A stretch of DNA of 32,000 nucleotides from Thermosulfurimonas dismutans (GTDB taxonomy: Bacteria; Desulfobacterota; Thermodesulfobacteria; Thermodesulfobacteriales; Thermodesulfobacteriaceae): positions 30,001-62,000 of the forward strand of contig NZ_LWLG01000002.1 of assembly GCF_001652585.1 (NCBI RefSeq), given 5' to 3'. The position numbers and the translations under genes were made by a program. Under the pieces are notes generated by a model. The model was given only the letters and a program-made list of their open reading frames with translations, was not told the DNA's origin and searched no databases. Positions 29,887-31,663 of the stretch are shown piece by piece. Every line of letters begins with the position of its first letter. The stretch's first letter is position 1.

Positions 29887-31077
29887 GTGGGATTTTTAAA
29901 ACGGATTGAAAATCAAACTCTGCTGGCCATTCTGCTGGCCGTCGTGGTGGGGATATCCTTCCCCTCGGTGGTCTTGAAATTTTCGGTTATCGGGAAAGCC
30001 TTCCTGAAACTGCTGAAGATGGTGGTAGCCCCCCTGATCTTTACCTCGGTATTTATAAGCCTCTTAAATCTGAAGAGTCTGAAAACCCTGGAACGGTTGG
30101 GTCTTAGGACCATCATTTACTACCTTGCGACCACCTCCCTTTCGGTTCTAATAGGCCTCCTCCTGGTGAACCTCATCAAACCCTCGGCCGAGATAGGGGC
30201 CAGCGAGATACCCGAATTAAAAACCATTTCCCTATCAGAGCTCTTCCTCGGGCTCTTTCCGGAAAATATCGTCAAGAGCTTCGCCCACACGGAGGTCATT
30301 CCCATCATCTTCTTCGCTATGGTGTTGGCTCTTGCGGCTCTCAAAATAGGAGAAAAGGCCAGACCGTTGAACTTATTTTTCGGGGCCCTCAACGAGACTC
30401 TTCTCACCCTCACTCGGGGCATCATCCGCCTGACACCGGCAGGAGTCTTCTTTCTGGTAGCTTCTTTGGTGGCCAAGGAAGGTCTCTCTCCACTCATATC
30501 CCTCTGGGAATATGCCGGAACCGTAGTCCTGGGACTAGCCATCCATGGTTTGGTAACCCTGCCTTTTCTCCTTTATCTCTTCACCCGGACAAACCCCTGG
30601 CGGTATTTCCTTGCCGTGCGGGAAGCTCCGCTTCTAGCCCTCTCCACGGCTTCGAGTTCGGCCACTCTGCCGGTAACCATTGAAGTTGCCGAGGAAAAAG
30701 CCGGAGTAAAACCTGAGGTGGCAGGTTTCATCCTCCCCCTGGGGTCCACCGTCAATATGGACGGCACCGCCCTTTACGAGGCCGTAGCCGCCATGTTCAT
30801 TGCCTACTCCTACGGTCTCAAACTCACGCTTTCTCAGCAGGTGGTTATCTTCTTGACTGCGGTTCTGGCCTCGGTGGGAGCTGCGGGTATTCCCAGTGCA
30901 GGCCTGGTAACCATGACCTTAGTCCTTCAATCCGTGGGCCTTCCCCTTGAGGGCCTGGGGCTGATCTTGGCGGTGGATAGATTCTTGGATATGCTACGAA
31001 CTAGCATAAACGTTTGGGGAGACCTAGTGGGGGCTAAAATCATAGATTCCTGGTTGCCCAAGGAGGCCAAGCATTAA
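29887..31077 (+). CDS. dicarboxylate/amino acid:cation symporter (DAACS/GltP family)
   Basis: Multi-TM protein with family motifs LKMVVAPLIFTSV, SSSATLPV, GSTVNMDGTALYEAV and VDRFLDMLRTSINVWGD. The start is GTG, preceded by AAGAGGAA. Confidence 0.9.
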   Translation: MGFLKRIENQTLLAILLAVVVGISFPSVVLKFSVIGKAFLKLLKMVVAPLIFTSVFISLLNLKSLKTLERLGLRTIIYYLATTSLSVLIGLLLVNLIKPSAEIGASEIPELKTISLSELFLGLFPENIVKSFAHTEVIPIIFFAMVLALAALKIGEKARPLNLFFGALNETLLTLTRGIIRLTPAGVFFLVASLVAKEGLSPLISLWEYAGTVVLGLAIHGLVTLPFLLYLFTRTNPWRYFLAVREAPLLALSTASSSATLPVTIEVAEEKAGVKPEVAGFILPLGSTVNMDGTALYEAVAAMFIAYSYGLKLTLSQQVVIFLTAVLASVGAAGIPSAGLVTMTLVLQSVGLPLEGLGLILAVDRFLDMLRTSINVWGDLVGAKIIDSWLPKEAKH

Positions 31078-31663
31078 CGCCTCTGAGAAAGAACGCCTGA
31101 TTCCGGATACCAGCATCTTCACCAATCCTGACGTTTATCACCAGCTGGGTGAAAGTCCCCCCGAAGCCTTTGAAAACTTCCTTCTCTTAGCGGCGGAGGC
31201 CGACGGACTCTCCGTTTATATGCCTTCTTCCATTTATGAGGAACTGAAAAAGATGGTAAAGGATCTTCACATCCCGCCCAGGGCCCGGGCCATTTTCAAG
31301 GTCAAATCCCCCCGAAAGTATGAACTCCAGATTCCGGCCTTCTTACTTTATGAATTCATCGAAGACCTGAGGAAAAGGATCAATAAAGGGCTCCGGGTGG
31401 CCGAAGAGGCCGTGAGGCTCAGTTCCGGAAAAAAACCAGGAGAGGTCATCAACATTCTTCGCCGAAAATATCGGGAGGCCCTCCGGGAGGGGATCGTAGA
31501 TAGCCGAGAGGACCTAGAGCTCATCTTGCTAGCCCTTGAGCTTGATGGCATAGTGCTTTCGGCAGACCGAGGAGTCCTTCTTATGGCGGACAAGCTTGGT
31601 ATCCGCTACATTCCCCCGAAGGAGATTCGGGAAACCCTCGAGGGTTTCCGGTACCTGGGTTAG
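31073..31663 (+). CDS. RNA-free RNase P homolog (HARP, Aq_880-like; PIN_5/UPF0278, formerly 'RNA ligase partner' family)
   Basis: The frame is open from 31046. The conserved PIN N-terminus [29 protein letters not shown] lies upstream of the track's ATG 31220. Further family-like blocks are [76 protein letters not shown] and LSADRG. The proposed start is ATT 31073, which follows AAGGAGG (31060-31066) by 6 nt and overlaps the upstream TAA (ATTAA). Confidence 0.7.
   Translation: [196 protein letters not shown]

Follow-up and report, generated by a model that had tools for sequence, protein, structure and literature searches.

The protein-only RNase P gene of Thermosulfurimonas dismutans and its proposed, clade-wide conserved AUU/AUC start codon

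Described HARPs, AUU starts and the T. dismutans locus

Aquificaceae have no RNA-based RNase P, and the protein-only RNase P known as HARP is therefore essential there; related Thermodesulfobacteria keep rnpA and rnpB. This study concerns the HARP gene of Thermosulfurimonas dismutans, which lies in a stretch of 32,000 nucleotides (nt) from the forward strand of contig NZ_LWLG01000002.1 (positions 30,001-62,000, assembly GCF_001652585.1), hereafter called the window, and which has no ATG, GTG or TTG codon in its open frame ahead of the first catalytic aspartate. We propose, as the likely reading of the comparative evidence set out below, that translation of this gene begins at an ATT codon at position 31073 of the window and gives a product of 196 amino acids (aa). 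The HARP of T. dismutans is not new and has already been catalogued, since Table S1 of a 2025 survey lists both T. dismutans S95 and strain F29 as HARP-positive and RNA-ligase-positive, with the two genes not co-localised (PMC12153264). The new element is the AUU/AUC start, which is conserved across the Thermosulfurimonas clade and resolves the conflicting public annotations of the gene.

The closest described system is the HARP of Thermodesulfatator indicus (UPF0278, P0009), which belongs to the same phylum and the same family and is 73% identical to the T. dismutans protein over 97% of the length, with identical catalytic Asp and Arg residues. Activity of the T. indicus HARP has been demonstrated both in vitro and in vivo, and the protein rescues E. 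coli; T. indicus also has functional rnpA and rnpB, and for no other HARP of a 'dual RNase P' bacterium has robust activity been shown (PMC9945441). Outside the Aquificaceae, most bacteria with a HARP have both RNase P types (PMC6380272, PMC10941002). T. indicus and T. dismutans are both recorded as HARP-positive and Rnl3 ligase-positive, again not co-localised (PMC12153264 Table S1). The two genes differ at their starts. In Thermodesulfatator (e.g. T. autotrophicus, locus L037) the HARP gene starts with an ATG at a distance of 14 codons from the Asp and has AGGAG ahead of it; the N-terminus of the T. indicus protein (MAFELEVERERL...) matches an ATG at this position. The T. dismutans gene lacks a canonical start and follows a symporter gene.

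The solved HARPs of Aquifex aeolicus (Aq_880) and Hydrogenobacter thermophilus (Hth1307) (PDB 7f3e, 8kd9, 8ssf, 8kda) are 46-50% identical to the T. dismutans protein and have the same fold, with template modelling (TM) scores of 0.65-0.84. Their Asp7/138/142/160 and Arg125/129/133 are conserved in T. dismutans. The Aquifex HARP has only 6 residues before the first of these aspartates, whereas the T. dismutans HARP has 11.

With regard to the start codon, the classic AUU-start gene is Escherichia coli infC, which encodes initiation factor 3 (IF3). Like infC, the HARP gene has a conserved AUU, here the proposed start, behind a good Shine-Dalgarno (SD) sequence, and low, IF3-sensitive translation would be expected from it. 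In infC, however, the AUU codon is an autoregulatory sensor through which IF3 represses its own start, and no such logic is evident for a nuclease; in the clade studied here, moreover, the codon is AUU in some genomes and AUC in others, and HARP comes second in a pair of overlapping genes (for infC-type AUU starts, see PMC5499595 and PMC9723500). Coupled overlapping gene pairs (PMC6728339, PMC10666635) are the other relevant precedent. In the window, the symporter and HARP genes resemble them in being co-directional, in sharing a 1-nt stop/start overlap and in having the SD sequence of the second gene inside the first. They differ in that the HARP start is not AUG, GUG or UUG, and in that the geometry of the overlap is not conserved among relatives.

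The encoded protein and its active site

Positions 31073-31663 of the window (Table 1) encode a full-length HARP, a minimal protein-only RNase P of the PIN_5 family. The 196-aa product matches Pfam PIN_5 (PF08745) with 203.5 bits (E = 3.3e-60, cutoff 27) over profile positions 1-202 of 205, and TIGR03875 ('RNA ligase partner protein') with 193.2 bits against a cutoff of 95.3, and it falls just under the cutoff of the narrower equivalog NF003344 (227 vs 241). All seven matches in a sequence search of the PDB are 'RNA-free ribonuclease P' chains (E 1e-56 to 3e-44), and the identity to solved HARPs is 46-58%. In a Foldseek search of the PDB, the best 34 matches are all HARP chains (E 2e-18 to 4e-11, TM up to 0.84), and these are followed by the PIN domains of Nob1 and VapC. 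An earlier prediction made on the same DNA (the original prediction) had assigned the gene to the HARP/PIN_5 family, had traced its open frame back to 31046 and had pointed to a DTS motif in the extra residues and to family blocks downstream; the assignment is borne out by these searches, and the frame, the motif and the blocks are present as described. The gene is thus an ordinary HARP, and our findings leave the nature of HARPs unchanged.

The alignment with Aq_880 that had been proposed along with that prediction places D12, D143, D147 and D165 on residues 7, 138, 142 and 160 of the A. aeolicus chain 8kd9, and the equivalents of D143 and D147 are also found in the alignment to the 7f3e chain. 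In Aq880, Asp7, Asp138, Asp142 and Asp160 are reported to be essential (PMC8405995). The four aspartates are invariant across 27 homologues, as are E7, five residues before Asp12, and R130, R134 and R138. These arginines align to Arg125/129/133 of Aq880, which are basic residues on protruding helices that bind the tRNA elbow (PMC8405995).

The AlphaFold2 monomer model has a mean predicted local distance difference test score (pLDDT) of 77.9, with values >90 for residues 11-80. It has the PIN-like metallonuclease fold of HARPs, into which a helical hairpin is inserted. Long helices are modelled at residues 89-116 and 122-138, the helical-hairpin region being of low confidence in this monomer; HARPs form homo-oligomers that range from tetramers to dodecamers. 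Strand beta1 is formed by residues 7-11, directly before D12, and strand beta2 by residues 46-50, the last of which is Met50. By analogy with the 73%-identical T. indicus orthologue, the T. dismutans HARP would be expected to cleave the 5' leaders of pre-tRNAs. Genomes with a HARP typically also have an Rnl3-type RNA ligase, in many cases less than 5 kb away, a trait that does not define the family. RNA ligase families were sought in the 26 window ORFs (open reading frames) upstream and in the 3-kb flanks of relatives, and none was found.

Comparative evidence for the start codon

The open frame of the HARP gene is bounded on its 5' side by an in-frame TAG at 31043-31045. Between 31046 and the Asp codon GAT at 31106, the frame was read for ATG, GTG and TTG and none was found; the only in-frame initiators of translation table 11 are ATT 31046, ATT 31073, CTG 31097 and ATT 31100. 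The original prediction, which had named ATT and CTG as the only initiators before DTS and had singled out ATT 31073 for its position 6 nt after AAGGAGG and its overlap with the symporter stop (ATTAA), proved exact to the base. ATT 31073 is the sole initiator-type codon at SD distance in the HARP frame, and its 6-nt spacing lies within the 5-8 nt that separate GGAGG from the start in those genes of the window whose starts are clear. The independently assembled contig DTZM01000122 (L009), from a metagenome-assembled genome (MAG), has a junction identical to that of the window, which rules out a sequencing or assembly error as the cause of the missing start. ATT 31046 was rejected as a start: it has no SD sequence, is ACT in L011 and elsewhere is conserved through the symporter coding sequence.

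Orthologous loci were gathered by exact-protein lookup, by a scan of a genome collection (80 loci) and by a metagenome scan, and each was walked upstream in frame from the DTS motif. They include seven diverged symporter-linked lineages, namely the window (with the near-identical MAG L009), L010 (strain F29), L011, L013, L014, L055 and L001. In all seven, (A/G)GGAGG is followed, after a spacer of 6-7 nt, by ATT or ATC 11 codons before the Asp (12 in L055), and ATT or ATC occupies the homologous codon in all nine distinct junction sequences of the Thermosulfurimonas clade. Six of the seven lineages have no usable canonical start: L009, L010, L011, L013 and L055 are like the window in having no ATG, GTG or TTG before the Asp, and the sole canonical candidate in L014 is a GTG 36 codons upstream of the Asp, without an SD sequence. 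L001 has a TTG at -8, but this codon is 15 nt from the SD sequence. An in-frame TAA stands immediately 5' of the SD sequence in L001, so translation there cannot begin further upstream.

The surroundings of this unit, which we call SD-AUY (AUY being AUU or AUC), are far less constant. The 3-4 codons after AUY are hypervariable (NAS, TTF, ITP, LVA, QNY, TSLH, HSL) and the sequence of the spacer varies among lineages. The symporter stop is found at -14, -5, -4, -4, +2, +14 and +25 nt from AUY across the seven lineages. In the symporter frame the SD sequence encodes K-E-x in some genomes but K-G-G in L001, and in L014 the SD sequence comes after the symporter stop. Since the flanks, the symporter frame and its stop are variable while SD-AUY stays, the conservation acts at the nucleotide level. 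This supports the view that the SD-AUY unit marks the initiation site, which is the sole explanation that we can find. The comparison of orthologous starts had been proposed with the original prediction, and it returned SD-N6-AT(T/C) in 7/7 lineages, with the residues upstream of Met50 conserved and Met50 itself not conserved across genera. Taken together, the start at ATT 31073 is probable.

In strain F29 (L010:2146-3058) the HARP frame extends upstream for 303 codons with neither a stop nor an ATG, GTG or TTG, through the symporter gene, which is read in a different frame, and the conserved GGAGG and the ATT at -11 are like those of the window. The metagenome scan for further Thermosulfurimonas junctions found nothing closer than 76% identity and returned only Thermodesulfatator-like and more distant loci. 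L016, L018, L092 and L093 were considered as further cases of GGAGG+6+ATC and were not counted, since in these loci a TTG at -14 corresponds in the alignment to the ATG that relatives have.

Outside the Thermosulfurimonas clade, the HARP starts of the surveyed loci are canonical. Thermodesulfobacterium, Caldimicrobium and L007 have ATG, occasionally GTG or TTG, 8 codons before the Asp, the Brocadiales have ATG at -12 and Thermodesulfatator has its ATG at -14. HARPs with a canonical start in this phylum always have at least 8 codons before the Asp. This bears on an unlikely alternative, in which translation starts at CTG 31097 or ATT 31100 and gives a HARP of 187-188 aa ('M(I)PDTS...'). The form exists exactly so in RefSeq (WP_279614532.1), both codons are allowed in table 11 and the catalytic Asp is kept. 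However, such a product would fall short of those 8 codons, would be without the invariant E7 and would have beta1 cut to 2 residues. Neither codon has an SD sequence, and the conserved AAGGAGG 30 nt upstream would be left unexplained. Nor are the two codons conserved as initiators, the codon at -3 from the Asp being CTG, CTT, CTC or CTA and that at -2 being ATT, ATC, ATA or GTA in relatives.

The coding constraint on the upstream residues has also been estimated. For residues 5-49 (45 codons), dN (the nonsynonymous divergence) is 0.10-0.24 versus relatives, with synonymous sites saturated, and for residues 50-196 dN/dS (its ratio to the synonymous divergence) is about 0.02-0.03. The N-terminal codons are under strong purifying selection, and this comparison of sequences shows that the N-terminal extension is translated. 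It is therefore very improbable that the 147-aa protein from ATG 31220 (TDIS_0477) is the real product and the frame upstream of it untranslated, even if ATG 31220 is the only canonical start in frame and the one that ab initio gene callers return, and even if similar truncated calls exist in relatives (P0067, P0071, P0125). The 147-aa version scores 167.2 bits against PIN_5 with a match that begins at profile position 47, and the 49 upstream codons add 36 bits and cover positions 1-46. The upstream part holds the essential Asp, beta1 and two or three helices, so that, judging from the PIN_5 match, the alignment and the model, the 147-aa product would be without beta1, the first helices and one catalytic Asp. 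Met50 lies inside beta2, its position is Leu or Ile in the HARPs of Thermodesulfobacterium and Caldimicrobium, and no SD sequence precedes its ATG. That an ATG-based call would delete a catalytic Asp (D12) had been foreseen in the original prediction, and it has occurred in the public record OAQ21257.1.

A pseudogene, silent or decaying after the loss of its start codon, is likewise hardly to be expected here. In its favour, the window lacks a canonical initiator, those archaea that have been tested can do without HARP, and a number of bacterial HARPs do not act on pre-tRNA (PMC10652100, PMC9945441). On the other hand, at least 8 genomes with saturated synonymous sites have the ORF intact, at equal length and complete in its catalytic residues, the dN/dS ratio of residues 50-196 is very low, and both SD and AUY have been retained; so much divergence would have destroyed a dead gene, and the pseudogene reading is disfavoured. 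Lastly, a C-terminal extension of the symporter by HARP through a prfB-like +1 frameshift at CAU-UAA with an upstream SD-like stimulator, which the window superficially resembles in its geometry (AAGGAGG, 5 nt, CAU UAA C, HARP frame +1), was rejected as next to impossible on the variable stop geometry, the symporter stop being elsewhere and in another frame in relatives (-14 to +25 nt) and upstream of the SD sequence in L014, and also because tRNA-His cannot re-pair on AUU by the established codon-anticodon rules, L003 and L012 keep HARP without a symporter, and a membrane transporter fused to a dodecamer-forming nuclease is implausible.

Public models of this one gene exist in three lengths, 147 aa (ATG 31220), 196 aa (ATT 31073) and 187 aa (ATT 31100). 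The closest database protein, WP_068668939.1 ('RNA ligase partner protein [Thermosulfurimonas dismutans]', 196 aa), differs only in having Met for the first Ile; RefSeq therefore already has the ATT 31073 model, and the MAG protein HIE32809.1 likewise begins there. The same 90%-identity cluster contains OAQ21257.1 / TDIS_0477 (147 aa), WP_279614532.1 (187 aa, 'MPDTS...') and the F29 protein (204 aa), which is annotated from a CTG that precedes the Asp by 19 codons. Truncated calls of 136-151 aa are also on record for relatives. A rule of SD, 6 nt and AT(T/C), 11-12 codons before the Asp, would give one consistent start clade-wide in Thermosulfurimonas, and the cloning of these HARPs for biochemistry should follow it. 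The literature was searched for expression or proteomic data on TDIS_0477 and for a HARP with an AUU start, and nothing was found. The metagenome-derived HARP entries P0067, P0071, P0125 and P0126 of the clade are truncated at an internal Met (136-158 aa) and appear to be the same artefact of ATG-only gene calling as TDIS_0477. Such truncated entries are still detected by domain surveys, yet they are without the first catalytic Asp.

Proposed mechanism and evolution of the start

The final 18 nt of the symporter gene contain both the ribosome-binding site and the proposed start codon of HARP, and there is no intergenic space. In the mechanism that we propose, HARP is the distal cistron of a symporter-HARP pair and has no ATG, GTG or TTG start. 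A ribosome held by AAGGAGG would place the initiator tRNA on AUU 31073, and this ribosome would be either newly bound or one that has just terminated at the overlapping symporter UAA. AUU being a poor initiator that is discriminated against by IF3, HARP synthesis would be low and possibly coupled to that of the symporter. Such low or symporter-coupled expression, like the tightly limited expression suggested in the original prediction, would be in line with the known behaviour of AUU starts: mRNAs that begin with AUU are translated, yet they lose out in competition with AUG mRNAs, to a degree that depends on IF3 and on conditions (PMC5499595). Coupling by termination-reinitiation is common in gene pairs whose stop and start overlap (PMC6728339). 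Because the stop/start geometry is not conserved, SD-directed initiation at AUY is taken as the supported core of this plausible mechanism and strict reinitiation as an optional addition to it.

A sigma-70-like promoter was sought at 29700-32000 and none was found, a weak negative for a thermophile, which is consistent with the co-transcription of HARP with the symporter. An internal HARP promoter was rejected on this result. A regulatory RNA structure at the HARP start is not supported either, the RNA around it being no more structured than shuffled controls (z = +1.1).

Some observations weigh against this account of the start and of the gene. Where they have been measured in model organisms, AUU and especially AUC are very weak initiators. 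The TTG codons near the start in L001 and in the symporter-less L003 and L012 could serve instead. NCBI's own models disagree, a second RefSeq model using ATT 31100 (187 aa) and a CTG being used for F29. Initiation at AUU is inferred from the comparison of sequences. The ATTAA overlap is not conserved in relatives, which weakens the specific version with termination-reinitiation; of the rare initiator or reinitiation suggested in the original prediction, the former has gained from the SD-AUY unit of the seven lineages, and the latter is plausible but gets no specific support, the overlap being variable. As to function, of five HARPs taken from bacteria of the 'dual RNase P' type, four showed no activity on pre-tRNA (PMC9945441), so the activity of the T. 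dismutans HARP cannot be assumed.

The conservation of the AUU/AUC start suggests a deliberately weak expression. A start other than AUG, GUG or UUG that is conserved genus-wide is uncommon, infC being the textbook case, and the HARP gene adds a clean comparative example. It also touches the question of why an RNA-based RNase P and a protein-only one are kept side by side in some bacteria, since a hard-wired weak HARP start, if true, suggests a low-abundance or conditional role. A bolder reading, which we regard as doubtful, would make the AUU/AUC start a regulatory device. HARP would then be made at a trickle that rises with relaxed start discrimination (low IF3, stress, temperature shifts) or with heavy translation of the symporter, and it would act as a conditional back-up RNase P or RNA-repair nuclease beside the RNA-based RNase P that is presumably also present in Thermosulfurimonas. 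The same doubtful reading includes the replacement of a canonical start at -8 by SD+AUY at -11 at the time when the gene was captured behind the symporter, and perhaps an independent switch in L019/L094.

As for the history of the start taken by itself, L007 has a GTG at -8 with AGGAG at 7 nt and has no symporter upstream. From the outgroups (GTG at -8 in L007, ATG at -8 in Thermodesulfobacterium), the ancestor probably had a canonical HARP start, and the distribution of the two forms suggests that HARP came to lie behind the symporter when its start moved to SD+AUY at -11. In the Thermosulfurimonas sp. MAGs L003 (2945-3045) and L012 there is no symporter between argB and HARP (compare 30963-31110 of the window). 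These two loci keep about 35 nt of the 3' coding end of the symporter (ATCTTGGCGGCGGAATAATTCTTAGATATGCTACG), followed by the CATAGATT...junction, so the symporter has been deleted secondarily. Their SD sequence is degraded to GGGGG, and a TTG stands two codons upstream of the ATC.

A further AUC start may have arisen in the Thermodesulfobacteriales MAG 355-202 (L019:1840-1890, on the same contig as L094). Its HARP is Thermodesulfatator-like, and the ATG of its relatives at -14 is replaced by CGC. Two ATC codons in a row stand 3 and 6 nt after a GGAGG, no canonical start is closer than a TTG 31 codons upstream, and the public protein P0006 (216 aa) starts far upstream. L019/L094 may thus be an independent second HARP initiated at AUC.

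Coordinates and neighbouring genes

Table 1. Features of the HARP locus, in positions of the window
Feature	Position	Strand	Remarks
Sodium:dicarboxylate symporter family gene	29887-31077	+	396-aa ORF; PF00375 SDF, E = 1.4e-121; stop TAA 31075-31077
Shine-Dalgarno sequence AAGGAGG	31060-31066	+	Inside the 3' end of the symporter gene; read directly; exactly 6 nt before ATT 31073
Proposed initiation codon ATT (AUU)	31073-31075	+	Base 31075 common to the symporter stop TAA
HARP coding sequence (RNA-free RNase P / PIN_5 / 'RNA ligase partner protein')	31073-31663	+	196 codons + TAG 31661-31663
ATT, Ile10	31100-31102	+	Start of the 187-aa model WP_279614532.1; judged not to be the real start
GAT, Asp12	31106-31108	+	Catalytic; equivalent to Aq880 Asp7; missing from the 147-aa ATG model
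ATG ORF	31220-31663	+	147 aa, from the ORF list; frame open upstream to 31046
Internal ATG, Met50	31220-31222	+	Start of the truncated GenBank model OAQ21257.1 / TDIS_0477, 147 aa
GAT, Asp143	31499-31501	+	Equivalent to Aq880 Asp138; invariant column
GAC, Asp147	31511-31513	+	Equivalent to Aq880 Asp142; invariant column
GAC, Asp165	31565-31567	+	Equivalent to Aq880 Asp160
Convergent gene, 3' end	31660-32000	-	Overlaps the HARP stop by 4 nt and leaves the window; context only, not part of the HARP unit

The 112-aa fragment of the convergent gene that lies in the window has no Pfam match. At orthologous loci, the convergent neighbour is a radical SAM protein of 374-375 aa (PF04055), found at the same position in L001, L003 and L010. 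In relatives, the radical SAM gene is followed by lptE and leuS.

Elsewhere in the window, the longest ORF for aspartate-semialdehyde dehydrogenase (21958-23121, minus strand) starts at TTG 23121 and overlaps the preceding gene for an AMP-binding enzyme (22988-24742, minus strand) by 134 nt; the likelier start is ATG 22983, which has GGAGG 7 nt upstream. Rfam and ARAGORN searches across the 32 kb gave tRNA-Leu(GAG) as their sole match (26126-26212, minus strand), directly downstream of the gene for a hybrid-cluster protein (Prismane) at 26297-27910. Five ORFs of 129-304 aa are without a Pfam family at E <= 1e-5 (28039-28428, 13154-13606 and 14504-15418 on the plus strand, 7526-8155 and 8302-8910 on the minus strand). 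In the relatives L003, L004, L009 and L010 the 129-aa ORF recurs, without annotation, beside the hybrid-cluster protein gene.

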